Shown here one piece after another: positions 14,725 to 60,099 of a stretch of DNA of 60,099 nucleotides. Source of the DNA: Candidatus Bipolaricaulota bacterium (GTDB lineage: Bacteria > Bipolaricaulota > Bipolaricaulia > UBA7950 > UBA9294); assembly GCA_026390345.1 (NCBI GenBank), contig JAPLGD010000037.1, positions 1 to 60,099 on the forward strand, in the 5' to 3' direction. The notes under the pieces were generated by a model. The model was given only the letters and a program-made list of their open reading frames with translations, was not told the DNA's origin and did not search any database. A program made the translations under genes and the position numbers. Each line of letters begins with the position of its first letter. Within the stretch, counting starts at the first letter, position 1.

Positions 14725-14837
14725 ACGTTCGTTTCCTCCTCGACCACAGACCGACCCCGAGATCGATGGCCATCCAATGAGGTTTCGAGTGGAGCTCGTT
14801 CAGTATAGACGAGGATGCGAGCAGGCGGAAGCCCTCG

Positions 14838-16166: not shown

Positions 16167-16204
16167 CGCTCATCCCCCGGACGGCGCCTTCGGCGGCCTC
16201 GGCG

Positions 16205-16534
16205 TCACCACTTCTTGAACATGAAGAATGCCGCCGCTACGAGAAACACAAACGCGACGAGGTAGTTCCAGCGAAGCGGCTCCTTGAGGTACACGACGGA
16301 GAACCCCGCGAACACGACGAGGGTGATGACCTCCTGGATTGTCTTCAGCTGAGCCGCGGAGAACTGGCCGTGTCCCAGACGATTCGCGGGGACTTGGAAG
16401 CAGTACTCGACGAACGCGATCCCCCAGCTGGCCAAGATCGCGAGCCAAAGGGGCGAGCTCTTGAACCGCAAGTGCCCGTACCACGCGATCGTCATGAAGA
16501 TATTCGAGACCAGAAGGAGACCGATCGTGCGCAA
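16205..16534 (-). CDS. DMT-family small membrane protein (DUF486-like)
   Basis: SNIFMTIAWYGHL, SWGIAFVEYCFQVPANR, QLKTIQEVITL. TTG start after GAGGTGAGG. Confidence 0.9.
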   Translation of the reverse strand: MRTIGLLLVSNIFMTIAWYGHLRFKSSPLWLAILASWGIAFVEYCFQVPANRLGHGQFSAAQLKTIQEVITLVVFAGFSVVYLKEPLRWNYLVAFVFLVAAAFFMFKKW

Positions 16535-16575
16535 CGCGCCTCACCTCGGGCTGCTGCCGAGACCGAGAACGAAGC

Positions 16576-16599
16576 GGGGGGCGGCCCAAACCACCCCCC
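16576..16599 (-). terminator. Stem-loop between the micro-ORF and the DMT gene
   Basis: Minus strand GGGGGGTGG-TTTGGG-CCGCCCCCC (9 bp with one U-G). The U-tract is weak. Confidence 0.4.
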
Positions 16600-16615
16600 T
16601 TTCTCCAGCGAGGAT

Positions 16616-16693
16616 CTACTTCTTCTTGTCCGTCGGCTTGCTCGACTTCTTCGCCGGCGCCGCCGGTTTCTTTCCGCATCCGCATCCGCTCAT
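16616..16693 (-). CDS. 25-aa Cys/Lys-rich micro-protein MSGCGCGKKPAAPAKKSSKPTDKKK
   Basis: ATG 16693 preceded by SD GAAGGGGGGA, with a dedicated consensus promoter upstream and a hairpin downstream. Confidence 0.65.
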   Translation of the reverse strand: MSGCGCGKKPAAPAKKSSKPTDKKK

Positions 16694-16730
16694 GGGTCCC
16701 CCCTTCGTCGGCCGAAGCGCCGACACCAGC

Positions 16731-16758
16731 AGGATAGCCTCCTCTACGCTGTTGTCAA
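16731..16758 (-). promoter_or_regulatory. sigma70-type promoter of the micro-ORF/DMT unit
   Basis: TTGACA(16758-16753)-16 bp-TATCCT(16736-16731). Confidence 0.7.
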
Positions 16759-16830
16759 GACCGTACGAGGCCCACCCGCCGCTGATCCGACCGATTCCAT
16801 CGCTCGTGAGGACACACCCGCCGGCGGGCA

Positions 16831-17430
16831 TCACGGGGCGGCGCGGCGCCTCGGACGCTTGCTGCCTGGCTCGCCGGGCCACTCTCCGCGCAGGAGACCG
16901 TACAACACGAGATCGTAGCGGCGCCCATCGCGCTCGCCGTACTCCCGAAAGATGCCTTCCCGCTTGAATCCCGCCTTCTCGTACAGCGCGATGGCCCGTG
17001 CGTTGTCTGCAATCGCGGAAAGCGAGAGGCGGTAGAGGTTCATCTCACAGAACGCGTACCGCAGGGCAAGCGACAGCGCCTCAAAGCCGTACCCCTGCCC
17101 CCAGAAGGCGCGATCCCCGATCCCCATTCCCAGCCAGGCAACGCGGTTCGACCACTCGATGTCGAAGAAGCCAACCGATCCGATCAGTCGGTCGTCGTCG
17201 AGGGTGCGGATCCCAAACGTAAGGGAGTCAAACCCGTTGTGGAGCGAGTCGATCTCCTCCTCGGCGCGCTCGACCGACAGGGGGACCGCCGTGTTCGTGT
17301 CCTCAAGGCGAAGGTACCCGATGTCCTCCGACCACGCGGACATCGCAGGTGCGTCCTCTTTTCGAAGCGCCGCGAGCCGAAGTCGCCGCCCTGCAAGCCA
17401 GTTGGCCTCTACGGAATCCGTTCTCACCAT
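16831..17430 (-). CDS. RimJ/RimL-family GNAT acetyltransferase
   Basis: LIGSVGFFDIEWSNRVAWLGMGIG, FWGQGYG, NARAIALYEKAGFKREG. Confidence 0.92.
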   Translation of the reverse strand: MVRTDSVEANWLAGRRLRLAALRKEDAPAMSAWSEDIGYLRLEDTNTAVPLSVERAEEEIDSLHNGFDSLTFGIRTLDDDRLIGSVGFFDIEWSNRVAWLGMGIGDRAFWGQGYGFEALSLALRYAFCEMNLYRLSLSAIADNARAIALYEKAGFKREGIFREYGERDGRRYDLVLYGLLRGEWPGEPGSKRPRRRAAP

Positions 17431-44730: not shown

Positions 44731-46095
44731 TCAAGCCGTCGGCAGCCGGAATGTGAACCGAGCCCCGCCCGTACGGTTGTTCTCCGCCCAGATCCGCCCA
44801 CCGTGTGCCTCGACCCATTGGCGGGCAATGGCCAAGCCGAGGCCGCTCCCGCCCGATCGGTTGCGAGCCGGATCCCCGCGGTAGAACCGCTCGAACACGC
44901 GCGGCAGGTCCTCCGGCGAGATCCCGGGCCCGGAGTCGGAGACGTGGACTTCGACTTCGCCTTCGGCACCGTGAATGGAGATCTCGATTCGCCCGCTCGT
45001 CGGGGTGTAGCGAAGCGCATTGCTCAGGAGGTTCGCGATCACCTGCCGAATTCGTTTCGGATCGACAGGAATCGGGCCAAGTTCCTCCTCCGCGATGACT
45101 TCGACATTCGGCGCTTCGTCCATCGACGGGACCGCGGCCTCGACGACCTGCCGCACGAGTTGCCCGATATCCGTCTGCTCCTTCAACAGCCGAAGCTCGC
45201 CCGCTTCGGCCAACGCAAGGTCGCGGAGGTCGTCGATCAAACGGCCGAGATGTAGCGTCTCCTCGTAGATCGGAGCGATCGTCTGAGCGGTGGGCTCGTA
45301 GATCCCGTCCAGGATGGCCTCCAGCGTCCCCTGGATGATCGTGACGGGGGTGCGGAGCTCGTGGGCGATGTCCGCGGTCATGGTCTCGCGCAGCTTCTCC
45401 GAACGGCGGAGGTTGTCGACCATGCGGTCGAACGACTCGCCCAGCCCGCGAAACTCGTCCCGCGTTCGAAGTCGGACCTTGTCCGGCAGGACCCCTCGCG
45501 CAACCTGTTCCGTCACCGCGCCCAGCGTGCGGAGCGGAGACAGAATCTGCGCAATCAAGAAGAGGGCCAGGACGAGCGCCAGCAACGTGGCGATCCCTCC
45601 GCCCAGAAGCGCGGAGCGTCGGGCCGACGCCAAGATGGCGGCCTCGTCGGGGTCGACGAAGTCCAGGATGAGCAGGGTGCCCACTTGCACGCCGTTCACA
45701 TAGATCGGTCCGCGGTCAATCTCCGCCTGCGTGAGCCTCCTCCCAATGTCCGGCTTCGTGCTGAGGAACACCTTGCCTTCCTCATTCGCGAGGGACAGGG
45801 GAATGTTGTAGATGGCAACGATGTTTTCGACGACCTTCCCGTCCTCGTCCCGTCGGGTCTCCACCACGCGGTAGAAGAGGCGGTCCACACCTCGCCAGGA
45901 TCCGTTCTGCTCGTAGTACACCGAGAGCTGCCTGCTGAACAGCGTGAAGATCTCCTTCCTCTGCTGCTCGCGATATCGGTCGAACCGTTGTGTCACGGAG
46001 CGCTCCGTGAGGAAGTAGACGAGGGCGACGGAGAAGACGATTGTGATGAAGAAGGCGAGTCCGAGCTTGAAGGCGAGAGGGAAGCGGCGCTTCAT
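44731..46095 (-). CDS. HAMP sensor histidine kinase (BaeS-like)
   Basis: Two TMs, HAMP, DIAHELRTP, NLLSNALRY, DSGPGI, GSGLGL. Confidence 0.93.
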   Translation of the reverse strand: MKRRFPLAFKLGLAFFITIVFSVALVYFLTERSVTQRFDRYREQQRKEIFTLFSRQLSVYYEQNGSWRGVDRLFYRVVETRRDEDGKVVENIVAIYNIPLSLANEEGKVFLSTKPDIGRRLTQAEIDRGPIYVNGVQVGTLLILDFVDPDEAAILASARRSALLGGGIATLLALVLALFLIAQILSPLRTLGAVTEQVARGVLPDKVRLRTRDEFRGLGESFDRMVDNLRRSEKLRETMTADIAHELRTPVTIIQGTLEAILDGIYEPTAQTIAPIYEETLHLGRLIDDLRDLALAEAGELRLLKEQTDIGQLVRQVVEAAVPSMDEAPNVEVIAEEELGPIPVDPKRIRQVIANLLSNALRYTPTSGRIEISIHGAEGEVEVHVSDSGPGISPEDLPRVFERFYRGDPARNRSGGSGLGLAIARQWVEAHGGRIWAENNRTGGARFTFRLPTA

Positions 46096-46096
46096 G

Positions 46097-46780
46097 TCAG
46101 GGCTGCCGGGCAAAACGATACCCGACGCCGTGGACGGTCTGGATGTACTGCGGGTTCTTCGGGTCCTGCTCGGTCTTCCGCCGCAGGTTCTTCACGTGCG
46201 TGTCCACCGTGCGCGCGAACGAGTCGTACGTGTAACCTTGAACCTCGCGCAGCAGCTGGAGCCTCGTAAAGACCTGCCCCGGATGGTGGGCGAGGTACGT
46301 CAGGAGGTCGAACTCGGTCGGAGTCAGGTCAACCATCTCGCCCTTCACGCGCAGCTCCCGCGTCTTCAGGTCGATCGCCAGATCGCCGGCGAGAATGCGC
46401 TCCGCTTCCATCCCCTCACCCTCATAGCGGCGGAGGACGGCGCGGACCCGGGCCACAAGCTCCCGCGGGCTGAACGGCTTGACGACGTAGTCGTCCGCCC
46501 CAAGCTCAAGGCCCACGACGCGATCGGCTTCGGACGCCTTGGCGGTCAGCATGATGATCGGCACGGACGACTTGGCGCGGATCGCACGCGTCACTTCGAT
46601 CCCGCTCATCTTGGGAAGCATGAGGTCGAGGATGATCAGGTCGGGGCCCTTCTCCTCGAACGCCTGGAGCGCCGAAGTCCCGTCGAACGCCGTATACGTC
46701 TTGAAGCCTTCCCGATCAAGGTAGGCCTTGACGGTTCTCACAATCATCTCTTCGTCGTCCACAATCAGGATGCGCTTCAT
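46097..46780 (-). CDS. OmpR-family response regulator
   Basis: ILIVDDE, LDLMLP, MLTAK, GADDYVVKPF, LTPTEF, TVHGVGY. -10 TATAAT at 46796-46791. Confidence 0.95.
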   Translation of the reverse strand: MKRILIVDDEEMIVRTVKAYLDREGFKTYTAFDGTSALQAFEEKGPDLIILDLMLPKMSGIEVTRAIRAKSSVPIIMLTAKASEADRVVGLELGADDYVVKPFSPRELVARVRAVLRRYEGEGMEAERILAGDLAIDLKTRELRVKGEMVDLTPTEFDLLTYLAHHPGQVFTRLQLLREVQGYTYDSFARTVDTHVKNLRRKTEQDPKNPQYIQTVHGVGYRFARQP

Positions 46781-47007
46781 GCTCAATTCCATTATACCCT
46801 TCGTTCCCCCGGGCCGAATAGCTCCCGCCCGCAACGCGACCAACGCACAGGCGGATACGGCGCAAGTATGATTCTCGGACCATTCTGTGGAGCCGTTCGG
46901 GCCACGCTGTGGGGAAGTTGTGAGTGCGACGGACTCGGATTGCCTTCCCGCGAGCGGACGACTACCATTCCCGACAACGTGGTCAAGTCCAGGTCTGGTG
47001 AGGGGGA

Positions 47008-48081
47008 ATGAAGCGGCTACTTGTTGTCTCCACAGAAGAGCACTCCGGGAAGAGCCTTCTCTCCCTCGGGCTCGGGCGGGCTCTTCAGGACCGCGGCACA
47101 ACGATCGCCTACATGAAGCCGATCAGCCACGAGGTGTCTTATGCGACGGGCGCCCCGATCGACGAAGATGTCGACACGCTGCGCTCGCTTCTCTCGCTCG
47201 AAGACGACGTGCACGACATGGCTCCAGTGCCCCTTGAGGGACCGTTCCTTCACGAGGCCATCGAGTCAGGAGACCGGGGATTCCGCCAGCGCATCATCGA
47301 CGCGTTCGCGCGTCTGACGCATGCACGGGACGTCGCCATCATCGAGGGCCGAAGTTACCTAGGGCTCGGAGTGAGCGCCGGGTTGAGCGATCTCGACCTG
47401 GCCGACTTGCTGGAGGCGGACGTTCTTCTCCTCACGCAGTACGACGGCGAAGAGGCCGTCGACCGGATCCTCTGCGCCCTGCGGCTGTTCGAAGGCGGTC
47501 CGAACATCCTCGGCGTCATCCTCAAAGACGTTCCTCTCGACCGCTCCTACACGCGAATCGAGGAGGTCTTCGTCTCCTTCCTTGCCGACCGGGGTGCCGA
47601 GGTTCTCGGGATCATTCCGTACGATCCGAACCTACGATCCGTGAACACGGACGAAATCGCGAAGCGACTCGGCGGCCGTGCTCTCACACGCCCGGACCTC
47701 AACCGCCAGGTGCGTCACTTCGTCGTCGGCGCGATGGGAACCGAAGCCTCGCTCCGCAGCTTCCGTCGAACCCCGGAGTTCGCGGTGATCACCGGCGGCG
47801 ACCGAGAGGACATCCACCTTGCGGCCCTACAGGTTCCCGAGTTGCGGTGCCTCGTGCTGACCGGCAACCATCGCCCGGCCCGCGAGGTCTTGGATCAAGC
47901 GGAGAGTTCCGGCGTGCCGGTCATCCTTGCCGGCCAGAACGCGATGGTCACTGCGTCCTTGTGCTCGAGCATGCTCAACCGGTTCTGGATCCGTCCCGGA
48001 GCGACCCTCGACTACGCCGTCGACCACGTTCGGTCCAACATTGACGTCGAGCGCATTGTGCAGAAGGCCGCAGATCCCTAG
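47008..48081 (+). CDS. Phosphotransacetylase-family protein (BioD-like N-terminus + DRTGG)
   Basis: HSGKS, YMKPI, IIEG, ITGGDREDI, CLVLTG. Confidence 0.88.
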   Translation: MKRLLVVSTEEHSGKSLLSLGLGRALQDRGTTIAYMKPISHEVSYATGAPIDEDVDTLRSLLSLEDDVHDMAPVPLEGPFLHEAIESGDRGFRQRIIDAFARLTHARDVAIIEGRSYLGLGVSAGLSDLDLADLLEADVLLLTQYDGEEAVDRILCALRLFEGGPNILGVILKDVPLDRSYTRIEEVFVSFLADRGAEVLGIIPYDPNLRSVNTDEIAKRLGGRALTRPDLNRQVRHFVVGAMGTEASLRSFRRTPEFAVITGGDREDIHLAALQVPELRCLVLTGNHRPAREVLDQAESSGVPVILAGQNAMVTASLCSSMLNRFWIRPGATLDYAVDHVRSNIDVERIVQKAADP

Positions 48082-49122: not shown

Positions 49123-49686
49123 TCAGGACGTGAAGAGCGGCAGCGGATCGCGGGCGGCCGCGGGCCTTCCCTTCGTGCCGGCCGCGCGCCCGAAGGGCGG
49201 CGTCACACTCGGCACGTACGTCACGGAGACAAACCCTTCCTCGCGGTCGACGGGCTCGTACTGCGCGACCAGATCGGCGTACGCCTTCCGCGGAAAGGCT
49301 CGAAGGCGCACGTACGGTTTCTCGATCGCAAGCCGCTTCGTGTTTCGCTCCATCCGGTCGTAGAGCGCGTCCGGAGACGTCATCGGAAGTACGTGCGCGT
49401 GTGGTTCCCGGCCGGAGAGCTGAGCGAGCTCGACGAGCGACAGCCGATCCGCCCGAGTGAGGTTTGGTTCATCCACACAGACACTCTCGGCCGAGGAATC
49501 CACCGCCTCGACGAGCGCGCACTGGAAGATTCGATCCACGGTGCTCTCGAACGCAGGGTCGTACGTAGAACGGAACATCCATTCCCGAATGGCCCCTCGG
49601 GAGACAATCACCCATTCTGGATGCTCACGCTGGAACGCCGTCTTCCCTGACCCGGGCAGCCCGACGAGGACGACCAACTGTCTCAT
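49123..49686 (-). CDS. AAA_33/polynucleotide-kinase-like P-loop protein
   Basis: LVGLPGSGKT, VSRGAIR, VCVDEPNL..ADR. Confidence 0.75.
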   Translation of the reverse strand: MRQLVVLVGLPGSGKTAFQREHPEWVIVSRGAIREWMFRSTYDPAFESTVDRIFQCALVEAVDSSAESVCVDEPNLTRADRLSLVELAQLSGREPHAHVLPMTSPDALYDRMERNTKRLAIEKPYVRLRAFPRKAYADLVAQYEPVDREEGFVSVTYVPSVTPPFGRAAGTKGRPAAARDPLPLFTS

Positions 49687-49777: not shown

Positions 49778-50923
49778 CTAGAACGGGAACGAGTGCGAGA
49801 CCACGATGCGGTCGAACCCGGTCTTCGAAACCGCCAGCGAGAAGGTGAGGTCGCCCAACTCCGCGGTCGGCTGGCCGATACAGCAGGCAAGATCGAAGCG
49901 AAGCGTAACTTGAGCCGATGGAATGTCGAATTCCATCCCCCCCTCGTACTGGTCGATGATCTCGAACGTCGGGGTCACGTTGATCGACCACGCCTCGAAG
50001 GCGCGCGTCCAGTTGAAGCTCAAGGCCAAGAGCGTGTCGGAGTCGAAGGACGCCGTCGACAGGAGTTGCCCGTCGAGGAACGGCCGACGCATCGAGATGC
50101 TGCCCTGCACGAACGCGTCCTCGTACGCGAACGTCGCGTTGAGAGCGATGTCCCCGACGATTCCGCCGATGCTGAGGGAAGAGCTCTCGTAGGAGAAGAG
50201 GTCCGAGAACCGAGCGTTCGCGCGAAGGGTGAAGCCATCCAAGAGCGGAATCGGCAGCTGCCCGCTCCACGAGACGGTCTCCGAGTCCAGCCCGGTCTGC
50301 CCGAACAGGACGTCCAAGGCCGCCCGCCCCCCGCACAGCTCAAGGTCCGACACGGAGAGCCGCAGGCCGTCGTAGGACGGAATGCAGCTCGCTTCCTCGA
50401 CTTGCCCGTAGGGGGTGGCCCCGAGTCCGAGGATGACAGAGATCCGGGCGAAGCCCTGGATGACCCCGGCGATTCGAATCGTCATCCCTGCGCCGATGGC
50501 GGACACTGTCTGCGTCCCAAGCTCAGTAACCAAGAAAGTCACCGCGTACGCGATCCCCTCGGACCGACCGGACACGGACAGGTCAGCGCGGCTGAACCTG
50601 TCGCCCGTGAACGAGCCGCTGCCCTGAAGCGATAGGTCGCCGAACGGAGCGCTGACTCGGACGCTCTCAGCAAGGAGCCCTTCATTTCCGAAACTGGTTC
50701 GACTCGAAATCGAGAATCGATCGTAGCGGTACGTAACCGCCAGCGACTCGCTCAGCGCGAGCGTCGCGATATCCATGTCCGACATGGACAAGGAGAACGT
50801 GTTGGCCCCGGACAGAGAGACCTGCGCGGCGGACGCGCCGAGGGGAACGAAGACCAGGAAGAGTCCGAGGACGACTCCCAGCCCGAGGCCTTCCTTATTC
50901 CAGCGCAATCTCCCCTTGCCCAT
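49778..50923 (-). CDS. Secreted beta-barrel-like outer-membrane-type protein
   Basis: Signal peptide, ~350 aa of Ser/Gly/Phe-rich alternating strands, C-terminal SHSFPF. Start uncertain (in-frame ATG also at 51010). Confidence 0.65.
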   Translation of the reverse strand: MGKGRLRWNKEGLGLGVVLGLFLVFVPLGASAAQVSLSGANTFSLSMSDMDIATLALSESLAVTYRYDRFSISSRTSFGNEGLLAESVRVSAPFGDLSLQGSGSFTGDRFSRADLSVSGRSEGIAYAVTFLVTELGTQTVSAIGAGMTIRIAGVIQGFARISVILGLGATPYGQVEEASCIPSYDGLRLSVSDLELCGGRAALDVLFGQTGLDSETVSWSGQLPIPLLDGFTLRANARFSDLFSYESSSLSIGGIVGDIALNATFAYEDAFVQGSISMRRPFLDGQLLSTASFDSDTLLALSFNWTRAFEAWSINVTPTFEIIDQYEGGMEFDIPSAQVTLRFDLACCIGQPTAELGDLTFSLAVSKTGFDRIVVSHSFPF

Positions 50924-51094
50924 ACACGGACAAGAGTACGGATGGAGCGGCCTCGGCCGGTCCCACCCGCTCCGTCGCCGATCCGTTCTTGTCCGTTCGT
51001 CGAAGGACATCGGGCACTCGGAGCGAGACCCTCCTCAAGAGAACGCTCACGATGCCTTTCGAAGTGCCCTAGGGACGCCGCGACCTCTCAGGGA

Positions 51095-51460
51095 TCAGTC
51101 GACGTAGTCCTCGATGTCGTCCAGCTGGCGCTGCATGGCGTCGAGCATGTACTTGATGTCGTCGAGCGTCCAGCGTTGCACGTCGAAGAAGCCGTACTGG
51201 GAGTCCGTCATCTTGACAGACACCTGATGAACCAAGTCGACCTCGGCGTCAAGATCTGCGATCGTGTCCTCCATTGTCGCGATACGTGCCTCAAGCAGGT
51301 CGAGCCGGTTCTTCCCATCCTGCGTCACGAGAAGGTCATAGACCTGCTGCAACGTGACCGGCGACGGAGAGGACGCTTGCCCGGCGAAGAGCGCAAAACA
51401 CACCCCCACGATCGCTACGGCTCCCAGGATCCCCGCCAGTCGATACCATCGCCTCTTCAT
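51095..51460 (-). CDS. Secreted/anchored coiled-coil protein (121 aa)
   Basis: ATG after AAGGAGG; signal/TM followed by an acidic heptad repeat. Confidence 0.75.
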   Translation of the reverse strand: MKRRWYRLAGILGAVAIVGVCFALFAGQASSPSPVTLQQVYDLLVTQDGKNRLDLLEARIATMEDTIADLDAEVDLVHQVSVKMTDSQYGFFDVQRWTLDDIKYMLDAMQRQLDDIEDYVD

Positions 51461-51557
51461 CGGTTCCTCCTTCTTCCTATTCAGTCCGATTCTACCTCGT
51501 CGCGCGCCTCCTGCCCGCCCCAGCAGTGTACGCCGAGGGCGCACGAGCGGGAACTGC

Positions 51558-52922
51558 TCACGGGCGGCGCAGTCGCTCCACCGCGCCCCACGCGTCGACA
51601 AGTCCGTTCCCGAAGAGCGCGTCCCGTCCTCGCTGTCCGAGATCCTCGCACGAACTCTCGAGGACAGCGATCGCTTTGTCGGCGGAGAGCTCGGGGGCAA
51701 GCGAGAGAATCAGCGCCAGGATCCCGGACACATGCGGAGCGGCAAACGAGGTCCCGGACTCGGTTGCCGGCCTTCCGCCCGCAGTGAACGCCGTGATCTC
51801 GTCCCCGGGAGCGCAGACGGCGACCTCAGGCCCGCGGTTGCTGAATGCCGCGAGAAGGTCGCCGCGATCCGTCGCCGACACAGCAAGGACACTGCCGTAC
51901 TTGCCGGGGTACATCACCTGGTTCTCGCCGAGGTTTCCGGAGATCCCGACAATGATGACCCCGCGCGCCCGGGCGCTCGAAAGGGCTTGCTCGAAGTAGT
52001 CCGGCGGGCGGGCGTTCGAAAAGATGCTCAGGTTGATGATCCGAGCGCCGTTGTTCACAGCGTACTCGATCGCTCGCACGAAGGTCCTCCAATCCGACGA
52101 CCCAAAACGATTCGAAGAATCAAGGAAGCGGACGTCCATGATCGACACGCCGGGGGCGACGCCGACAATGGGGTACTCGCCGGGACGCGCGGCAATGATT
52201 GACGCCACAAACGTTCCGTGCCCGTGAAGGGGCGTCCCCGTGAGCGAACTCGCATCGTTGTCGCGAAAATCCCATCCGTGCACGTCGTCGACGTAGCCGT
52301 TGTAATCGTCATCGACGCCGTTGCCGGGCACTTCATCGGGATTCGTCCAGAGGCTCGCGGCGACCTGAGGGATGCGGGCGTCGACGCCGGAGTCGATTAC
52401 GGCGACGATCACGGCGGGATTGCCGTGCGAGACAGTCCAGGCCTTCGGTCCCCCGATCCGGACGAGGCCCCAGTTGCTCGGCTGCTGGTACACCGTGTAG
52501 AGGCCCGGACTCGGGGAGGGCGACGGAGCCAGCGGGAGGGCGACGGGGAGGATCTGGAACGGCAGCGTCCCCGACGTCAGGGTCCCGCCCACCTCGAGCG
52601 CGATTTCCAGAAGGTACGCTCCGGCGATCTGGTACTCCCACCGGCTGCTCGCCTCGACGACAACCAGCGCTCCCGCGTCCGCGGAGAACGGACCGACCGG
52701 GACCTGATCGATCCCCTGCCCGGCGTGCCCCATGTCCCGCAGGGTCGCCGTTCCCCGCACGTTCTCCTGTGGGAGCGCCGTGGGATTCGAGAACTGGAAC
52801 GACACGGTGAAGGGGACGAGGTTCACGATCTCGATCTTCTGGATCTGCGCTTCACCGGCGGCCGTCCCGAGAGAGAGAATGGCGAGGACGACGACGATAC
52901 GCAGGACGCGCGGCTTCCTCAT
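51558..52922 (-). CDS. S8 subtilase with N-terminal Ig-like domain
   Basis: Catalytic triad VIDSG / HGTFVA / GTSFAAP; WTNPDEVPGNGVDDD.NGYVDD insertion; signal peptide. Confidence 0.93.
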   Translation of the reverse strand: MRKPRVLRIVVVLAILSLGTAAGEAQIQKIEIVNLVPFTVSFQFSNPTALPQENVRGTATLRDMGHAGQGIDQVPVGPFSADAGALVVVEASSRWEYQIAGAYLLEIALEVGGTLTSGTLPFQILPVALPLAPSPSPSPGLYTVYQQPSNWGLVRIGGPKAWTVSHGNPAVIVAVIDSGVDARIPQVAASLWTNPDEVPGNGVDDDYNGYVDDVHGWDFRDNDASSLTGTPLHGHGTFVASIIAARPGEYPIVGVAPGVSIMDVRFLDSSNRFGSSDWRTFVRAIEYAVNNGARIINLSIFSNARPPDYFEQALSSARARGVIIVGISGNLGENQVMYPGKYGSVLAVSATDRGDLLAAFSNRGPEVAVCAPGDEITAFTAGGRPATESGTSFAAPHVSGILALILSLAPELSADKAIAVLESSCEDLGQRGRDALFGNGLVDAWGAVERLRRP

Positions 52923-54220
52923 CCAGCCCGATCCTCGTCTGCTTCCGCAAACCAGCGGAGAGCCTGATCGAGCGACACCTCCTCCGTCTCTCCCCACCCG
53001 CCCGACCGAATCCGCAGGGTCACGGGGAAGGAGAAGAGCGAGGTCACGTCGGAGGCAAAACGCCGCAGCCGTTCTGCCGCCACCGCCGCCCCGTCCGTCG
53101 GCGTCTCTGGAAGGATGGCCGCCAAACGATACGAGTCGATTCGGAACACCGTGTCGACCCTCCGCAAGCCCGAGACGAAGAAGGTCGACGCTCGCACCAG
53201 CGCGCGCGTTTGGTCTTCCGGCGCCTGGCCTGGCAGGCCTTCGACCTCCAGCACGAGGACCGACGTCGGGTGCTTGTATCGTCGCCCCTTGCTGAGCTCG
53301 ATCTCGAGTTGCTCGCGGAAGTGATCGGCGTTGTACAGTCCCGTGACGTCGTCGAGGACGACGAGCTTCTTCAATTCCTGTTCGTGGGAGTGGATGACCT
53401 TCGTCATCAGGTTGAACCGATCGACCAACTGCGCGACCTCGTCGCGAACGGGCGTCCCGGGAGTCCTGGGCGGCAGCTTGACCTCCACTTCGTAGTCGCG
53501 CATGGCGACCGCGGCCGTCGCCTGGGCCAGTCGGCCGATCGGCCGAGTCACGATGGCGCGCAGCACAAAGAAGAGGCTTCCCCCCAAGAGAAGAAAGCCG
53601 ACCACGGATCCCAGGGCGAACTGCCACGAGAGGCGGCGGTCGTAGGCGGCCATCTCGTCGGTCGACATGTCCACGATGACGACGCCGACGAGGTCGGCCC
53701 CGGAGAGGATCGGCTGGTAGGCGCGCCACGCACGGGTTCCCCGAGCGCGCTCCACGGTCGCTTCATTCCCTTGCATCTGTTCATACCGCGCCCTGACCGT
53801 GTCCGAGGCGAGCTCTCCAACCTTCGTGGGGTCGGTGCTCGCGACCGTCAGGAACCCGCGCGCCGTCGCTCCGATGACCGTGATCTCGATGATGGATTCG
53901 TAGCGCGCAAGGAGTTGGTCGATGTCCGCACTGAGTTCGTTGGAGTAGTAGAGGACGTAGTCCTTCTCCTGGATCGACTTCGAGATGAGGCTCGCCACGC
54001 TCCGGGCCCGCTGCTCGTAGATCGACCCGATCGACGCGTGGAGCGATACGAACGCAAACCAAGAGAGGGCGCCCACGACGGCGCACGCGATCAGGAGGAC
54101 GGGAACGATCAACTTCCACTGCAGGGACGTTCCGTACCGAATCGCGGACCGCATTCGCGCCGGCCGACCGGTGTCCGATCGGTCGTCCTTCCGGGTCTTC
54201 GACTCGATGTTCGTACTCAT
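52919..54220 (-). CDS. Membrane Cache-like/HAMP/degenerate GGDEF protein (probable c-di-GMP receptor)
   Basis: Two TMs, HAMP, DDVTGLYN. I-site RRVD is intact, while the A-site is DSYRL instead of GG(D/E)EF. Confidence 0.8.
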   Translation of the reverse strand: MSTNIESKTRKDDRSDTGRPARMRSAIRYGTSLQWKLIVPVLLIACAVVGALSWFAFVSLHASIGSIYEQRARSVASLISKSIQEKDYVLYYSNELSADIDQLLARYESIIEITVIGATARGFLTVASTDPTKVGELASDTVRARYEQMQGNEATVERARGTRAWRAYQPILSGADLVGVVIVDMSTDEMAAYDRRLSWQFALGSVVGFLLLGGSLFFVLRAIVTRPIGRLAQATAAVAMRDYEVEVKLPPRTPGTPVRDEVAQLVDRFNLMTKVIHSHEQELKKLVVLDDVTGLYNADHFREQLEIELSKGRRYKHPTSVLVLEVEGLPGQAPEDQTRALVRASTFFVSGLRRVDTVFRIDSYRLAAILPETPTDGAAVAAERLRRFASDVTSLFSFPVTLRIRSGGWGETEEVSLDQALRWFAEADEDRAG

Positions 54221-54242
54221 GACAGCTCCTCTTCCTCGATGC

Positions 54243-56657
54243 CTACTGGATCAGTCCCTCGTTCCCCAGGAACTCCATGACCACGTCGAGCGGCTCTCGG
54301 TGGAGCAGGCGGACGCGGCTGGCCATGCTGCGTAGGTTCCGTTCGGTCAGGTGGGCCGACAACTTCGCGAAGACCTGCTCAACTTCGGGGAACCGCCGAA
54401 CGTCCTCTCGACCGACCAGGACGCCGATGGGTCTTCCCGGCAGAGCAAAGGCATCGTCTTCGAGCCGCACAAACCCCGCCACGGTCGCCGTTTCCTCGAC
54501 GTTCTCGAGCAGGGCCGCGGAGACCGATCCGAACTTGAGCAGGGCCTCCGCCTCCTCGGGCGTCGCGGTTCGACGTAACGAACGGATCGGCACTCCGTAG
54601 GCAGAGGTGAACCGAGCCACGGCGTCGTCCGAAATCTCGGCCGGAACGGCGATCGTTCTCCCCTCCGCGTCGCGGGAGCGCGCAAACGCGGAGATCGACG
54701 GCTCGCCCAACCCTCGGGCAATCTCCCCCGGGACGATGAGATCCCAGCGCAGGTCCGTCGGCACACTCCAGTACACCGGCGTTCCCGGCGGCGGGGCCGC
54801 CCCGACCCACCAGGCGATGTTTACGTCGCGCTCGTCCATCGCCGCCAGCAGCTCCTCCGACGTTCCGAGCCCCGAGAGGTCGACGACGCGGAACCCGGCC
54901 TCGGAGAGCACAACCTCGAGAGCCTGCCCGAGGACGAGGTCCACGAGGTCGCGACCCGCGGCGACTACGATCGTCCCCTTCCACGCCGTGTCGGGAAGGT
55001 GGATGTTGCCGGACACGAGGGCGTCATGGTTGATCCAGCGATTGCCCCCCGCGTAGAGCAGCTCGGCCGTCTCGTTCTTCACGTCATGCAGGCGGTTCCT
55101 CTCGAACAGGTTGTTCTGGACGATCGGCGCCCCTCCGGGTGTCTCCGCGACAAGGGAGATTCCCAGCAACGGGAGAACGGTGTCCTCTTCCGACAGGGCT
55201 TCCTGCCATCGCAGGCCGACTTCGTTACCGACCAATCGATTCCCTACCACGCGGACCCCGAACCCGGGTGCGTACAGGCTGACGCCGACGTCACAGTCCG
55301 AGACTCGGTTCCCCTGGATCGTGTCGCGCGAGGACGTGGCGGTGAGAATCCCCACCGCCGTCTCGCTCACGGCGTTCTCGATCACGTTGTTCCCTTGACA
55401 GTGGTTGGCGAGGACGACGCCGGAGAGCCTGCAACGGTTCATCACGCTCCGCAGAACGGAGTTGTCGATCGCTCCGACGAGGACGACGCCCGACGCGGAA
55501 TCGTCGATGCGGTTGTCGAGGAGGCGGTTGCGGTGGGCCTCGGCAAGCAGAATCCCCGCTGTGTCCGCTCGGACGATTGTGTTCCCGAGCAGGCGTCCCT
55601 CCGAGGATCGCGTGAGGGCAATTCCTGTCTTGCCGTCCGAGATGCGGTTGCGCGCGATCAGGTTCGCGTCGCTCGCATCGATCCGGATCGCTGCGTCGCG
55701 GCATCGCGACAGACGGCCGTCGACGAACGCGTTCTCCCTCCCCCCGGCGAATCGAACCCCGTCTCCCGCCGAAGATCCAACGACGTCTCGCTCGAGGCGA
55801 CTCCTGCGGGCCCCGACGAGAGAGATGCCGGCGTCCTCGACGGCCGTGATGACACAGTCCAGAATGCGATTCTCGTCTGTCTCCTCGAGGACCGCGCCGA
55901 CGCGCGACGTCCTGATTCGACTTGCCTCGAGCGCGTTGCCTCGCCCCCCAAGCACCTCGTAGCCGACGATCGACGCTCCGGCAACCCTCAACCCGACGAA
56001 GACATTGTCCTCCGATTCCCCAACAGAGACCCCCGTCGGCGCGCCGTCGACCGACACGTCGCGGAACTCGTTCGCTCGAGCCTTTCGGAGCCGAATCCCG
56101 GTCTCATCGCATCCACGTGAGACGACTCCCCGGAAGAGGTTGCCCGACGAAGCGGAGACGTCGATGCCGATTGGGCTTTCCTCGACGGTCAGCCGCTCGA
56201 ACGTCCCCTGGCCGCTGCCGGAGAGGAGCACGGCGACCTCTCCGCCGCGAGCCCGAACATCCTTGACGCGGCATCCTGTGCCTTCAACGACCAAGGCCAC
56301 AGACGCCCCTTGGATGTTGAGACGCCGCACGGCCGTGGCGTCCGCGCGGAGCGTGACGACCGGTTCGTCCGTCCCGACGAGGACCGCTCGTCCCCGCGTC
56401 GAGGTCAGAACGAGGCCCGTCGTGTCGAGGACCACCGGTCCGGAGTACGGCCCTCGGCGGGCGTCGAGGACGATCGTCGTTCCCTCGGTCGCCGTGCGGA
56501 GGGCCTCCGAAAGGGTGGCGACGTCACGCGGAACGAAGAGACTTCCTTCGGGAAAGCGGTCGCGCGTGACGCTCCAGACGACCAGCACGGCCACTCCGAC
56601 CGCAGCGATCGCAACGACAGCGATCCAGAACGGCTTCCTCCGGCATTCGTGTTTCAT
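54243..56657 (-). CDS. NosD/pectate-lyase-like right-handed beta-helix fused to an OpuAC-like periplasmic-binding domain
   Basis: N-terminal TM, VP.D..TL.EA, many GI.L..S.GN coils. C-terminus has LGQALEVVL, RLEDD..ALP, FAKLSAHLTERNLR. Confidence 0.75.
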   Translation of the reverse strand: MKHECRRKPFWIAVVAIAAVGVAVLVVWSVTRDRFPEGSLFVPRDVATLSEALRTATEGTTIVLDARRGPYSGPVVLDTTGLVLTSTRGRAVLVGTDEPVVTLRADATAVRRLNIQGASVALVVEGTGCRVKDVRARGGEVAVLLSGSGQGTFERLTVEESPIGIDVSASSGNLFRGVVSRGCDETGIRLRKARANEFRDVSVDGAPTGVSVGESEDNVFVGLRVAGASIVGYEVLGGRGNALEASRIRTSRVGAVLEETDENRILDCVITAVEDAGISLVGARRSRLERDVVGSSAGDGVRFAGGRENAFVDGRLSRCRDAAIRIDASDANLIARNRISDGKTGIALTRSSEGRLLGNTIVRADTAGILLAEAHRNRLLDNRIDDSASGVVLVGAIDNSVLRSVMNRCRLSGVVLANHCQGNNVIENAVSETAVGILTATSSRDTIQGNRVSDCDVGVSLYAPGFGVRVVGNRLVGNEVGLRWQEALSEEDTVLPLLGISLVAETPGGAPIVQNNLFERNRLHDVKNETAELLYAGGNRWINHDALVSGNIHLPDTAWKGTIVVAAGRDLVDLVLGQALEVVLSEAGFRVVDLSGLGTSEELLAAMDERDVNIAWWVGAAPPPGTPVYWSVPTDLRWDLIVPGEIARGLGEPSISAFARSRDAEGRTIAVPAEISDDAVARFTSAYGVPIRSLRRTATPEEAEALLKFGSVSAALLENVEETATVAGFVRLEDDAFALPGRPIGVLVGREDVRRFPEVEQVFAKLSAHLTERNLRSMASRVRLLHREPLDVVMEFLGNEGLIQ

Positions 56658-56694
56658 CGTGCCCACTCTAGCACACGGGCTCGCGCACCGTCCA
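56564..56694. repeat. Copy 1 of a ~130-bp imperfect direct repeat (promoter + 5' end of the beta-helix gene)
   Basis: Aligns by eye with 56971-57100. Promoter TGGACG-18 bp-TAGAGT with extended TG on the minus strand. Confidence 0.8.
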
Positions 56695-56828
56695 GGACGC
56701 GGCTTGGGGCTCTCCGGTCACTCGGAGGCCAGGGCGTCGTCAGACGACCCGGCCAGCCAGAGCGTTGGGCACGAAAGGCTTGCCGCCGCACGTCAACGGA
56801 CACCCACTCCGCGGCGGCGTACGCCGTG

Positions 56829-56866
56829 ACCCTCCTCCACGCAGTTCCATTCTCCCTCGCTACAGG
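56829..56866. repeat. 38-bp imperfect direct repeat, copy 1 (copy 2 at 57678-57715)
   Basis: 33/38 identical: ACCCTCCTCCAC..TTCCATTCT.CCTCGCTAC.GG. Confidence 0.75.
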
Positions 56867-56956
56867 TGCGGATGGGGTGGAGGGAGCGGATGAAGGGGCG
56901 GAGTCGATGAGCCACCGATCGGATGGGCGACCTCAGGCGGAATGGAGGGGTCTCCC

Positions 56957-57100
56957 TCAGAAAAGCAGGCGCGTGAAGTTCCAGATGACCAGGATGGCAA
57001 TCCCAACCACGGCGACTGCAGCGATGACGATCCTGAAAGGCTTTCTCCGGCATGCGCGTTTCGCGGACCCACTCTAGCACACGCGCTCGTGCAGCGTCCA
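56957..57100 (-). pseudogene. Start-less relic paralogous to the N-terminus of the beta-helix gene (copy 2 of the repeat)
   Basis: Reads AKRACRRKPFRIVIAAVAVVGIAILVIWNFTRLLF* versus MKHECRRKPFWIAVVAIAAVGVAVLVVWSVTR. ATG is replaced by GCG. Confidence 0.65.
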
Positions 57101-57155
57101 AGCTGCGTCGCGGGGCTCTTCAGTCACTCCGGGGAGGCACCGACCGCGCGAAGGA

Positions 57156-57644
57156 TCAGTCGGGCATGATCGTGCAGACGAGGAGGGCTTCTCCGTCCGT
57201 CCCGTCGGAGTTCGCCCCGTCCAGAGCTACTCGCACATCGACGCCGACGTCAAACGTGCCGTTGGAGCCGCTCGAGAGGATGATTGGCTGGTCTCCGAGC
57301 GTCGTGTACCCCCGCCCGTGTTCCCTCACATCCACCGACGGGAGTCTGCTCCGGGAGGAGTTCGCCCAGCGCACCTGAAGGCGCCAGGGCGTGTTGCTGA
57401 CCACACGAAAGCGGAATGCATTCTCGTCTTCGATGTAGCCGCGTGAGCGCTCGAGGGTCGATGCAGGTCGGAAGCTGTACGAGACCGCGGTCACATCCTG
57501 GGACGACCCGGCCAGCCGAAGCGTTTGGTACGGAAGGATTCGCCACCGCACGTCGACGGACACCGACTTCTCTACGGCGTACGCCGCGACGGCGACAAGG
57601 GACAGCGCGAGGATGATCGTCATCCAGGCCCGTCCTCGGCCCAT
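57156..57644 (-). CDS. Secreted beta-rich pilin/fibre-subunit-like protein (162 aa)
   Basis: ATG after GGGAGG; signal peptide; V.V.W.I..YQ.L and F.VVSNTPWRLQV pattern seen in CS1/WxL/spore-coat-U-like subunits. Confidence 0.6.
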   Translation of the reverse strand: MGRGRAWMTIILALSLVAVAAYAVEKSVSVDVRWRILPYQTLRLAGSSQDVTAVSYSFRPASTLERSRGYIEDENAFRFRVVSNTPWRLQVRWANSSRSRLPSVDVREHGRGYTTLGDQPIILSSGSNGTFDVGVDVRVALDGANSDGTDGEALLVCTIMPD

Positions 57645-57708
57645 CAGGGAAGAACCTCCCGATAGTTCCACGTCGCAACCCTCCTCCACACTCTTCCATT
57701 CTTCCTCG

Positions 57709-58761
57709 CTACGGGATCTGCAAGACGTGTCGCCGGAGGGCGTCGACGTCGGCCGGCGTGAGGACTCCGTCGTCGTCGAAGTCGAACGCCCGAGCATTGT
57801 CCCGGATGGCCGGGAGATCGAGGGAGATTTCGAAGAGAGCCACGTCGATGTCGTCGACGCCTCCATCCCCGTCGATGTCCTCGAACAGCCCGTCTCCGTT
57901 TGCATCCTGGGGAGGCCTCGAAGAGGTCCCGAGCGGCACGAGGGCGAGCTCTGGAACGCGAAGAACGACCTGCCCTGCGACGAGGTAGTCGCCCCCGAAA
58001 TCGATCACGATTCGGACAAGGAACATCCCCGAATCGAGCAGGCTCCACGGCGCCTCCACAACGGCGTCCACGGAGTATCCCGGGAGGATGGAGAACCGGG
58101 GTAGGGAGGTCTCGGCCAGCGTGGCGCCGCTCGGAGACTGGATCGAGAGCGTCCCTGGGACCTCGGCGAGCCGCGTCTCCCCGCGGTTTGCGACGCTGAA
58201 CTCGACCGTGAGCGGCGAAAGCCCGCGCACAGCGACCCGTGTGACGGCCGCGCCCTGCACGGCCGGGAGGGATGTTACGTAGACCTTGACAAGGAACTCC
58301 CGCGCCACGCGAATTCCGCTCTCTTCCGGCCCGGCGTCGACCGCGCTCACGGCGACGAGGAGTCCCGCCCAGTGCGTTCCCACCGCCCTCGCAGGGACGG
58401 AGACACCGCAAGAGACCTCGACTTCGTCCGCGGGGCGCAGCACGTACGTCAGCGCCGGCAGAGCGAGCCACGGCGCACACGAACGCTCGATGGTTCCAGG
58501 ACGAAAGAGACGGGTCACCCCGTCGGGGTCCTCGTCCCAGTCGCACGACGAGATGTCGACACGAAGGAACGAGTTCTCGTCGTTCTGGATTGTGAAGCGC
58601 ACCTCGAGATTGGATCCCGGGCGAGCGACGAGGGAAAACTCCGACACCGAGACGGTGATCCCCGAAGCCGCTGCGGACACGCCAGCCACGACGGCCAACA
58701 CAAGGCTCCCCCACTCGAGAAGTCTGCGTCCTTTGCTTTCGGCCTCGCGACGAGCGCTCAT
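57709..58761 (-). CDS. PapD/DUF916-like two-Ig-domain secreted protein with C-terminal dockerin-like EF-hand pair
   Basis: Signal peptide; FTIQN..DW..G..SCAPWL..L.P..V.VP; C-terminus QDANGDGLFEDIDGDGGVDDIDV...FDFDDDGVLTPADV. Confidence 0.75.
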   Translation of the reverse strand: MSARREAESKGRRLLEWGSLVLAVVAGVSAAASGITVSVSEFSLVARPGSNLEVRFTIQNDENSFLRVDISSCDWDEDPDGVTRLFRPGTIERSCAPWLALPALTYVLRPADEVEVSCGVSVPARAVGTHWAGLLVAVSAVDAGPEESGIRVAREFLVKVYVTSLPAVQGAAVTRVAVRGLSPLTVEFSVANRGETRLAEVPGTLSIQSPSGATLAETSLPRFSILPGYSVDAVVEAPWSLLDSGMFLVRIVIDFGGDYLVAGQVVLRVPELALVPLGTSSRPPQDANGDGLFEDIDGDGGVDDIDVALFEISLDLPAIRDNARAFDFDDDGVLTPADVDALRRHVLQIP

Positions 58762-58834
58762 GGTTCCCTGTGTAGCGTCCGCGGCCCGCGGAAACAAGAG
58801 CGCGGGATGCCGGGAGATGGCGGAACCCGCGCCA

Positions 58835-60099
58835 TCACGCGGTCGCCACTCGCAGCCTCTCCAGGACGCCGTCCAGCGGCTCCGGGCGACCGATGTGGAA
58901 CCCCGCGCGCAATCGACGCCGATCGACCGCAAGACCTCGAGCGTCTCCTCCGTCTCGACGAACTCCGCGATGGTCCGCTTGCCAAGGCCCTTAGCCAGCT
59001 GAACCATCGCCACGACCAGGTGCCGATCGACCGGGTCGCGCCCGAGGTTGCGGATGAAGCTCCCGTCGATCTTGAGATAGTCCACATCCAGGTTCTTGAG
59101 CTGGTAGAACGAGGAGAACCCCATGCCGAAGTCGTCGAGCGCGAACTCGTACCCTTGCGTCCTGAGGGCGCGGAGGAAGTCCTTGGCCACGTGAATGTTG
59201 TAGATCGCCGCCGTCTCCGTGATCTCGAGCACGAGCCGAACGGGTCCGATGACCGACAGCGACGTTCGGCTCGAGATCGCGGACAAGACGGCGGGGTCGG
59301 TGAGCGACCGCGGCGAGAGGTTCACGGCGAACGAGACGTCGCTTGGCAACTGCTCGTCGTCCAGCGTGTCCATGACCTTCTCTAGGACCCACCGGTCGAT
59401 GTCGCCGCTCAGCCCGAACTGCTCGGCAATGTCAAGAAAAGCGCCGGGGGGAATGATCTCTCCGCTACGTCCGAGGAGGCGAAGGAGGATCTCGTAGCGG
59501 ACGATGCGGTTCTCGGTCAGATCAAGGATCGGTTGTGCGTAGAGGATGAACCCGTCGTTCTCAAGGGCGTCCCGGATCACGCGGAGCCAGTCGACGCGCG
59601 ACTCGGGGTCGTCGACCTTCTCCTCGTCGGGCGAGTAGAGGCAGAACCGGTTGCGCCCTTGGGCCTTCGCCCGGTACATCGCCATGTCGGCCTTCATGAG
59701 GAGCTCGCTCCCGCTCGCTCCGTGATCGGGGAAGAGGACGATCCCGAGGCTTGCCGTCGTTCGGAGCGTTTCCCCGTCGATCACGGCGGTGTGCTTCCGG
59801 ATCGCATCGAGCAACCGTCCCGCTGCAATCTGGGCCTGTCCACTGTCCACGTTCAGGTAGAGGACGGCGAATTCGTCGCCTCCGAGGCGAGCGAGGACGT
59901 CCGAATCCCGAACCGTCGCCCGCATTCGATGGGCGAGGCTCGCCAGGAGATCATCGCCGACCTTGTGGCCCAGCCCGTCGTTGATCTCTTTGAACCCGTC
60001 GAGGTCCATCCACAGGACAGCGCCTTGCCGTTCGTAGCGCCGAGCCTCCGCCAGATGTCGTTCGAGGAGATGCCCGAACTCGCGCCGATTGCAGAGCCC
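58835..60099 (-). CDS. GGDEF-EAL protein (5' end outside window) with a 1-nt deletion near the 3' end
   Basis: RDSD..ARLGGDEF, YEILLRL, LEITE, LDDFG, KIDGSF, IAEFVE. DCARGS should read DCAQGFHIGRP; frameshift at ~58904-58905; native stop TGA at 58837-58835. Confidence 0.88.

Follow-up and report, generated by a model that had tools for sequence, protein, structure and literature searches.

The question raised by this locus is whether its genes form one cell-surface system under the control of cyclic di-GMP (c-di-GMP) or belong to separable units. The window, i.e., the whole stretch of DNA analyzed, is 60,099 nt and represents contig JAPLGD010000037.1 from a Candidatus Bipolaricaulota bacterium (assembly GCA_026390345.1). 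Eight genes at positions 49778–60099, designated A to H, are all on the minus strand and have a coding-type signal in the GC content at third codon positions (GC3). A preliminary description made from the sequence alone assigned all eight to a single c-di-GMP-controlled fiber or adhesin system. The coordinates and orientation it gave are correct, and six of its eight domain assignments (A to F) hold, while those of G and H are unconfirmed. The single eight-gene system is not borne out: G and H are found only in close relatives, B-C is missing from 22 of 41 informative loci and A is missing from locus L020 (L numbers denote the loci and contigs of relatives that were compared). The locus is composed of two modules, a D-E-F core and an optional B-C pair, and the fiber genes are an add-on to the c-di-GMP module and not its center. 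The reading developed here is that of a composite cell-surface system, in which a c-di-GMP switch made up of D, E and F, usually with A, would be joined by an optional B-C fiber assembled by donor-strand exchange. We give this reading a rough probability of 0.45.

Searches among 5.8 billion proteins gave ten close homologues of C and sixteen of B, and the contigs that encode them repeat the order A-B-C-D-E-F-kinase. A scan of metagenomes with an alignment of E orthologues yielded 80 loci with identities of 45–94%. Gene D is directly upstream of E in all 67 informative loci, and F is directly downstream of E in 63 of 70. The upstream neighbor of D, seen in 41 informative loci, is C in 19, A in 11 and another gene in 11. 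In most loci A is directly upstream of B-C-D or of D. Rearranged loci keep the fiber genes by D-E: C-D-E is met by a convergent B in L014 and L106, and a B-like gene is present on each side in L105. What stays constant is D-E, accompanied nearly always by F and usually by A, and B-C is an optional insert. The preliminary description had named conserved gene order in other genomes as one of its tests; such order is found for D-E and E-F, but B-C, G and H are not constant.

An N-terminal hydrophobic segment is present in each of the proteins B to H (one each, but two in E) and absent from A, in accord with the earlier view that all products but the first are exported or membrane bound. Gene D (positions 54243–56657) encodes a protein of 804 aa with an N-terminal transmembrane (TM) helix, a NosD-like beta-helix (Pfam Beta_helix, E-value 9e-41; NosD, 1.5e-37) and an OpuAC-like domain, which is detected in D orthologues. 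The Protein Data Bank (PDB) matches of D are to NosD and to glycine-betaine binding proteins, and the OpuAC-like parts are slightly better conserved than the beta-helix. This agrees with the initial assignment of D as a membrane-anchored beta-helix/binding protein fusion. Gene E (positions 52919–54220, 433 aa) follows D after a gap of 22 nt and encodes, in order, a TM segment, a WalK-like extracellular domain, a second TM segment, a HAMP domain and a degenerate GGDEF domain. The stop of E and the start of F overlap by 4 nt, and because of this overlap E and F are read as translationally coupled.

In the GGDEF domain of E the active site is lost and the inhibitory site is kept. The GGDEF position has the sequence DSYRL, and RRVD is found exactly 5 residues upstream (RRVD-TVFRI-DSYRL). 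In 41 E orthologues the GGDEF position reads G/S-x-x-R-F and the intact motif (GG[DE]EF) is present in none, yet R353, V355 and D356 of the R353-x-x-D356 I-site are invariant in all 41. The other well-conserved parts of E are extracellular residues 41–120 and the HAMP domain with its signaling helix, which are the best conserved of the protein. No EAL or LapD_MoxY_N match to E was found with Pfam, and the NCBIfam LapD match (E-value 5e-5) spans only the HAMP region and the start of the GGDEF domain. Loss of the GGDEF active site with retention of the I-site is typical of c-di-GMP receptors, PelD and PopA among them. On these motifs, E is a probable c-di-GMP receptor, and the intact I-site that had been noted for it is confirmed.

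Gene F (positions 51558–52922) encodes a secreted S8 subtilase of 454 aa. It matches Peptidase_S8 (Pfam, E-value 2e-46) and thermitase and subtilisin structures in the PDB, and the D/H/S catalytic motifs are intact in the translation. Its N-terminal immunoglobulin-like (Ig) domain is homologous to the second Ig domain of B, as a hidden Markov model (HMM) of the B family matches residues 8–129 of F with an E-value of 5e-12. The claim that two of the proteins share an Ig domain therefore stands at the level of the family profile; a direct BLAST of B against F within the window is not significant.

Gene A (positions 58835–60099) runs off the end of the window, so that only the C-terminal part of a PAS-GGDEF-EAL protein is present; the PAS domain is at the N-terminus of full-length orthologues. 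The Pfam matches are strong (GGDEF, E-value 1e-40; EAL, 9e-66) and in keeping with the original assignment, and the GGDEF domain carries an RDSD I-site. Bipolaricaulota genomes encode 1–4 GGDEF proteins each (PMC10086821). A and E represent two of these few proteins, both at this locus, and the other 49 kb of the window yielded no GGDEF or EAL genes. Three-frame translation of the raw sequence shows A and B as a single open reading frame (ORF; positions 57709–60009). This in-frame fusion is due to a 1-nt deletion between positions 58905 and 58904 (GCGC-GGGG versus GCGCAGGGG), which is absent from 11 of 11 relatives. The deleted base is the A of a conserved Gln codon in the EAL 'AQGF' motif, and the last ~23 codons of A are shifted. 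We treat the deletion as a sequencing or assembly error beside the G run, or as a recent inactivating mutation, and not as a designed A-B fusion. L080 has a 107-aa ORF (positions 7006–7326) whose only similarity to the EAL model is to its final 35 positions; in this locus, which retains the 105-aa gene described below together with D-E-F, A seems to have decayed to this remnant.

A further gene is linked to the module. A cytoplasmic protein of 105–106 aa (MYRSSVKKFVQG...FTTAHG...SFLCWLAAIGVELL; 60–94% identity) precedes A, or D where A is missing, in 38 loci. It is at positions 6710–7030 in L001, and the corresponding position is past the end of the window. It has no Pfam or PDB match and is likely part of the module. 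Giant proteins with Big_9/cadherin repeats (11–17 repeats) or DUF11 domains adjoin the module in L001, L003, L006, L054, L080, L081 and L093, usually in divergent orientation. The sequence past position 60099, to which the preliminary description had pointed, can be seen in relatives of the window's own lineage (L001, L012 and L028), where the 105-aa gene is accompanied by another C-like gene, a DUF11 protein of 1518 aa and a further S8 protease. Other genes can follow D-E in the seven loci without F. In L054 (positions 9622–17016) D-E is followed by a 751-aa LVIVD-repeat/PPC protein and a convergent gene for a 1696-aa beta-helix protein, and L060 (positions 6402–13741) has ORFs of matching size. 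These genes may be an alternative output of the D-E switch.

The optional module begins with gene B (positions 57709–58761), which encodes a secreted or anchored protein of 350 aa. The AlphaFold2 (AF2) model of B, with a predicted local distance difference test (pLDDT) score of 84.6, displays a leader helix, two Ig domains and a helical dockerin. The best Foldseek match is the Enterococcus faecium WxLIP 9i25_C (E-value 2e-14), with 9i1y also matched; WxLIP corresponds to DUF916/DUF3324. The next matches are the chaperones CfaA, Caf1M, FimC and CsuC of chaperone-usher systems, with E-values of 1e-10 to 1e-8. At the sequence level Pfam detects only the dockerin in B; Dockerin_1 is matched in 9 of 12 B-family members (best E-value 7e-8), WxLIP_PGBD weakly in 1 of the 12 (E-value 0.069), and PapD_N or PapD_C in neither B nor the 12 members. 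Conserved motifs are present across the family alignment. A scan for hydrophobic segments shows no C-terminal TM segment in B, and the anchor is N-terminal. From the model, B is a chaperone-like protein with a WxLIP/PapD fold, and a chaperone role may be proposed for it. This agrees with the PapD/DUF916-like Ig protein with a dockerin-like domain that was predicted at the outset.

Gene C (positions 57156–57644) encodes a small secreted subunit of 162 aa. The family alignment shows a signal peptide that ends in an invariant AYA. The segment directly after it, VEKSVSVDVRWRILPYQTLRL, is an N-terminal strand and the most conserved stretch of the protein. In the AF2 monomer the beta-sandwich core is confident and residues 21–35 are disordered, with pLDDT below 50. 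The strand VEKSVSVDVRWRILPYQTLRL is likely a donor strand. Weak Foldseek matches of the C model are all to donor-strand polymers: the Sulfolobus thread 7pnb (top match), the PapG pilin domain 3me0_B and the cannula-like tube 9bab. These features agree with the pilin-like character first ascribed to C.

Single-sequence searches of C in Pfam, NCBIfam and the PDB gave nothing, and C-family profiles built from 12, 42 and 124 sequences were searched against PDB sequences. The top matches were always 9ikk and 9ikj, the fibrils TLP-1b and TLP-1a. The E-value of 9ikk is 0.068 with the 12-sequence profile, 0.014 with 42 sequences and 2.1e-7 with 124 sequences, where 9ikj has an E-value of 7.3e-7 and the next match 0.48. 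This stepwise drop as the profile widens is counted in favor of a relation between C and TLP-1. In the alignment, the conserved strand at the N-terminus of C falls on the donor strand of TLP-1. TLP-1a and TLP-1b, both 8-nm tubular fibrils, were solved by cryo-electron microscopy directly from pond water, and neither their source organism nor their genes were found by the authors (PMC11494351). Protomer n+4 donates its N-terminal strand to complete the Ig-like fold of protomer n, and this strand is disordered in AF2 monomers (PMC11494351). The profile evidence indicates that C is a distant member of the TLP-1 family and not an orthologue, since the aligned part is limited to the first ~70 positions and TLP-1 exceeds C in size.

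The C family is large. A word-indexed search gave 85 clusters; when 1.84 billion representatives were searched exhaustively, 1622 were obtained at E-values of 1e-3 or less, the clusters (~1600) being defined at 50% identity. No Pfam model covers the family when the 12, 42 and 124 members are scanned, and no WxL match was found in these members or in the window proteins. One member weakly matches Mfa2 (E-value 4e-4). A second C-family gene is present in L001 (positions 5693–6157, minus strand; 154 aa; family HMM E-value 4.5e-10) and also in L012, L028, L029 and L099. It is transcribed divergently, with the gene for the giant DUF11 protein on one side and the 105-aa gene on the other, which places it ~3 kb past the window end in the window's lineage.

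Pairs of B and C are also found far from Bipolaricaulota. A genome scan with the B alignment revealed B-like genes of 23–30% identity in Omnitrophota, a deltaproteobacterial metagenome-assembled genome (MAG), Flavipsychrobacter and unclassified MAGs. Nearly all of these distant loci have one to six adjacent small secreted proteins homologous to C. Adjacent B-like and C-like genes, often with 2–6 C paralogues, are seen in Omnitrophota (L019, L024 and L026), in Chitinophagales/Flavipsychrobacter of the Bacteroidota (L023 and L025) and in an unclassified bacterium (L022). Most of the distant loci add a protein of 730–1180 aa, mostly with multiple Ig domains (NEW3, Ig_VWA7, SdrD_B or PKD); a protein with a type IX secretion system (T9SS) tail is present in a Chitinophagales locus, and two Omnitrophota loci add an OmpR-type regulator. 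In Omnitrophota L024 (positions 5515–12712) and L026 (positions 4504–12913) five or six tandem C-family genes are followed by the B-like gene, then by one more C-like gene (the seventh, shorter than the others, 157 aa) and an SdrD_B/Ig_VWA7 protein of 880–950 aa. In arrangement these clusters are reminiscent of a pilus operon that encodes major and minor subunits together with a protein for the tip or the anchor. No usher family was found in the window proteins or in the neighbors of B-like genes. The early suggestion of a fiber-type pair is supported, as chaperone-like B and pilin-like C co-occur across phyla.

A wider proposal can be made from these data, and it is offered tentatively, as one we think somewhat doubtful. 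The B/C pairs would represent an unrecognized, usher-independent class of chaperone-assisted donor-strand-exchange pili across phyla (Bipolaricaulota, Omnitrophota, Bacteroidota and others; ~1600 subunit clusters) and would be the genetic basis of TLP-1. In Bipolaricaulota this class would be plugged into a new Lap-like c-di-GMP output device built from unrelated parts, i.e., the I-site GGDEF receptor, the subtilase and the beta-helix anchor.

The folds, homologies, motif conservation and gene linkage established here can be combined into a model of the composite system, for which we infer c-di-GMP binding by E, the direction of signaling, the substrate of F, polymerization of C, the chaperone role of B and all interactions. 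D-E-F with A and the 105-aa protein would be a post-translational switch at the cell surface. A would set the local c-di-GMP level, and the catalytically dead E would bind c-di-GMP in the cytoplasm at its RxxD I-site and relay the signal through the HAMP domain to its conserved extracellular domain, i.e., from the inside out. This outer domain may control the co-translated subtilase F, the anchored D or both. As output, surface proteins would be retained or clipped, the candidates being the giant cadherin/DUF11 adhesin, D and the fiber. B-C would be an optional fiber module inserted between A and D. C would be exported, cut after AYA by removal of the signal peptide and polymerized by donor-strand exchange through its N-terminal strand as in TLP-1; B would cap or chaperone C, and its dockerin would tether the assembly to the surface. 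The copy of the second Ig domain of B that is carried by F could direct the protease to the same partner.

Several observations weigh against this reading. The housekeeping flank (AAA_33 kinase, glutaredoxin, HTH, OsmC and CbiA/DRTGG genes) is as syntenic as the module, and all D-E-F loci are from one phylum. Synteny within the clade is weak evidence for function because this flank is conserved too, and the linkage may partly reflect inherited order. Seven of the 70 loci are without F, A is missing in L020, which has B-C-D-E-F, and in 22 of 41 informative D-E-F loci no B-C is present within 10 kb, so that the switch needs no local fiber. The N-terminal half of E matches WalK (NCBIfam, E-value 3e-15), and sensor modules of the WalK type normally signal from the outside in. 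The role of D is left unexplained by the switch model. The dockerin is missing in some B orthologues, and a cohesin partner for it is absent from every protein scanned in the window and relatives. The TLP-1 alignment spans only the N-terminal ~70 of 176 profile positions, and TLP-1 is not among the top 50 Foldseek matches of the C model, so that the link between C and TLP-1 rests on sequence profiles.

The WalK match leads to an opposite direction of signaling. Here the beta-helix and OpuAC-like domains of D would capture a carbohydrate or solute outside the cell and offer it to the WalK-like outer domain of E, E would modulate A or another partner by way of its dead GGDEF domain, F would be a nutritional or maturation protease, and regulation of B-C would be downstream. 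Binding-protein-dependent sensors such as LuxP-LuxQ and TorT-TorS are an established design, and the adjacency of D and E is absolute, tighter than that of E and F, with the OpuAC-like parts of D slightly the better conserved. An invariant RxxD beside a dead active site is, however, a receptor signature that a pure relay would not need. E also has no kinase or other output domain, and the B-type Ig domain on F argues for a role at a surface structure. Outside-in sensing is for these reasons considered rather unlikely.

The fold of B allows a reading of B-C without a fiber, in which the pair would be a non-polymeric wall complex of the WxL type, with C bound to the wall and B stabilizing it by strand insertion as proposed for WxLIP-WxL. 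The structure that B matches best is that of a WxLIP bound to a WxL protein, and C has two W-x-[LIV] motifs (W34 and W87), yet no WxL Pfam match is found in C or its 124 family members, and of the solved structures only a donor-strand-exchange fibril is significantly related to C. The clusters in other phyla, with small proteins, a B-like protein and a multi-Ig protein of ~900–1100 aa, mirror the layout of small WxL, WxLIP and large WxL proteins (PMC10599100). B is without the C-terminal TM helix of WxLIP, and many of the hosts belong to diderm phyla, where wall binding from outside is unlikely. This interpretation is improbable, and the donor-strand-exchange fiber remains the preferred reading of B-C.

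F might instead act on the fiber directly, as an assembly protease in the manner of type V pili, trimming C or B so that the donor strand is exposed or released, with E only gating F. Protease-triggered strand exchange is known in type V pili of Bacteroidia. The Ig domain shared by F and B would let F dock on the same subunit, and the weak Mfa2 match of one C-family member points the same way. F is nevertheless kept in the 22 loci without a local B-C, the B-C clusters of other phyla are without an adjacent S8 protease, and the donor strand of C starts at the predicted signal-peptidase site, so that further trimming is unneeded. An assembly role for F is very improbable. Equally improbable is the absence of any functional unit, with genes that are neighbors by descent in one phylum and act independently, for although the flanking genes are equally syntenic, each of A, B-C, F, G and H is dispensable in some lineage and promoter and terminator signals define no operon, D-E is never separated, E-F is translationally coupled, B/C are found rejoined to D-E in three different arrangements, B-like genes are accompanied by C-like genes in different phyla and two of the phylum's very few GGDEF genes flank the cluster.

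The remaining features of the region are outside the two modules. Gene G (positions 51095–51460) encodes a protein of 121 aa with a TM segment and a putative coiled coil; the coiled coil had been put forward earlier and rests on weak, sub-threshold Pfam matches, the only ones found for G. Gene H (positions 49778–50923) encodes a secreted protein of 381 aa with a C-terminal Phe. The beta-barrel that had been suggested for it is unconfirmed, and H has no Pfam, NCBIfam or PDB match. G and H are located between F and the kinase and are present only in the nearest relatives of the window (L010–L013 and L028–L030), with the same distribution. They are lineage-specific inserts outside the conserved module. 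A coiled-coil protein encoded next to a possible beta-barrel would recall the Thermotoga toga proteins OmpA/OmpB.

The spacer between C and D is 498 nt and contains degenerate duplicates (positions 56667–57155, no strand assigned). Repeats that were thought to tie the units together are confined to this spacer, and they are copies of the B-end/C-start junction and of the upstream region and 5' end of D (repeat families D1, D3, D6 and D7). A tblastn search with the N-terminus of D reveals a pseudo-D N-terminus at positions 57061–56960 (56% identity over 34 aa). A copy of the sequence upstream of D is at positions 57134–57068, and a copy of the B-end/C-start junction, including the N-terminus of C, is at positions 56866–56743. 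The full insert is common only to L001 and L002, and the spacer is 50–160 nt in several other relatives. The repeats are debris of a local duplication. Regulatory or mobile elements were considered and rejected, as the repeats are degenerate copies of adjacent gene ends and the full insert is limited to L001 and L002.

The AAA_33 kinase gene (positions 49123–49686, minus strand) is a ninth co-oriented gene outside the feature under study. An OmpR-type response regulator and a HAMP-HisKA kinase are encoded on the same strand at positions 44731–47122, ~2.5 kb past the cluster. An OmpR-type regulator also heads the Omnitrophota B/C-type clusters (L024 and L026), which may be coincidence. Bacterial genes nearby in the window are these two and a release factor (RF) with PCRF/RF-1 domains. 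The closest public relatives are MAGs labeled Candidatus Bipolaricaulota or Ca. Bipolaricaulis, and a few labeled Thermotogota or Atribacteria are probably mislabeled. Weak matches to DUF7310/DUF7347 had pointed to an archaeal source, a reading that is rejected in view of these bacterial genes and of the labels of the relatives. An Rfam scan of the whole window found no RNA families, and hence no c-di-GMP riboswitch, and no tRNAs were found in the window. A scan for promoters and terminators gave intragenic matches only, near chance level, and is uninformative on operon structure.

The locus has implications for the biology of the phylum. For Ca. Bipolaricaulis anaerobius, whose genome is closed, a lack of genes for pili, fimbriae or surface adhesins was reported (PMC6092417); the locus and its neighbors suggest that members of the Bipolaricaulota have a surface-attachment apparatus. 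If E binds c-di-GMP and gates the subtilase, inside-out proteolytic control of adhesion would have arisen independently of LapD/LapG, and the signaling network would be unusually tractable in a phylum with 1–4 GGDEF proteins. No published description of the D-E-F/B-C module or of the gene context of TLP-1 was found in the literature.

Among known systems, the D-E-F module is most readily compared with Lap, and the LapD/LapG analogy drawn in the preliminary description is reasonable in that a degenerate GGDEF domain with an invariant I-site is coupled to an S8 protease and a giant adhesin is nearby in relatives. As in Lap, E combines two TM segments with a HAMP and a degenerate GGDEF domain and is encoded beside a secreted protease, a giant repeat adhesin is near in relatives, c-di-GMP enzymes are near, and inside-out control of surface proteolysis is proposed. 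The parts differ. LapD binds c-di-GMP through a degenerate EAL domain, whereas E has no EAL domain and would bind at the GGDEF I-site. The outer domain of E is WalK-like and that of LapD is LapD_MoxY_N. F is an Ig-subtilase, whereas LapG is a calcium-dependent cysteine protease (BTLCP/DUF920), and the invariant partner D has no Lap counterpart. Genes for a type I secretion system (ABC/MFP/TolC) were not among the proteins scanned, which cover part of the window, and the window ends before the adhesin position. By this comparison D-E-F would work like Lap with parts that are not homologous to Lap parts.

The B-C pair can be compared with three groups of systems. WxL clusters, known from Lactobacillales and Listeria, have at least one WxLIP (DUF916, DUF3324 and a C-terminal TM helix) and at least two WxL-domain proteins within four genes (Hassan, Chaudhuri and Williamson 2023). 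B is closest to WxLIP in structure, and the likeness extends to a two-Ig protein with small secreted partners, a large multi-Ig protein in other phyla and a proposed strand insertion. The locus differs in that it has no WxL domain and no Pfam-level WxLIP, the anchor of B is N-terminal and often accompanied by a dockerin, the hosts include diderms, and C, the partner of B, is related to a polymerizing fibril. The envelope type of Bipolaricaulota itself is uncertain (PMC6092417). Chaperone-usher systems (Fim, Pap, Caf1, CFA/I, Csu and CupE) share with the locus the PapD-like two-domain fold of B, a small subunit that is Ig-like and extended at the N-terminus, clusters with several paralogous subunits in other phyla and assembly by donor-strand exchange, which for C is proposed. 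They differ in having an usher and in that neither B nor C shows membership in PapD or fimbrial families at the sequence level. Neither an usher, WxL or LapG nor any other canonical part was found, in accord with the preliminary description, which had noted the lack of lap and canonical usher genes. The TasA/TapA/SipW system of Bacillus and the archaeal threads and bundling pili are usher-free, donor-strand-exchange fibers of the biofilm matrix, and the top structural match of C is one such thread. In contrast to these, the accessory protein here is a two-Ig, PapD-like protein, and neither a sequence relationship nor a dedicated signal peptidase was detected.

The closest comparison for C is with TLP-1a and TLP-1b themselves (CryoSeek, Tsinghua Lotus Pond; PDB 9ikj/9ikk). 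In both, the N-terminal strand that comes after the signal peptide is disordered in the AF2 monomer, and a core motif 'S..W.L' and a C-terminal strand 'PGxYxhxhxY/F' are shared. The TLP-1 protomers are ~236 aa with larger loops, whereas mature C is ~140 aa, and an n+4 tubule is not implied for C. The presence of the C family beside a PapD/WxLIP-like gene provides a concrete, testable genetic context and a candidate chaperone for TLP-1. On these comparisons the locus would represent a new combination of parts, in which Lap-like logic is joined to a chaperone-assisted donor-strand-exchange fiber.

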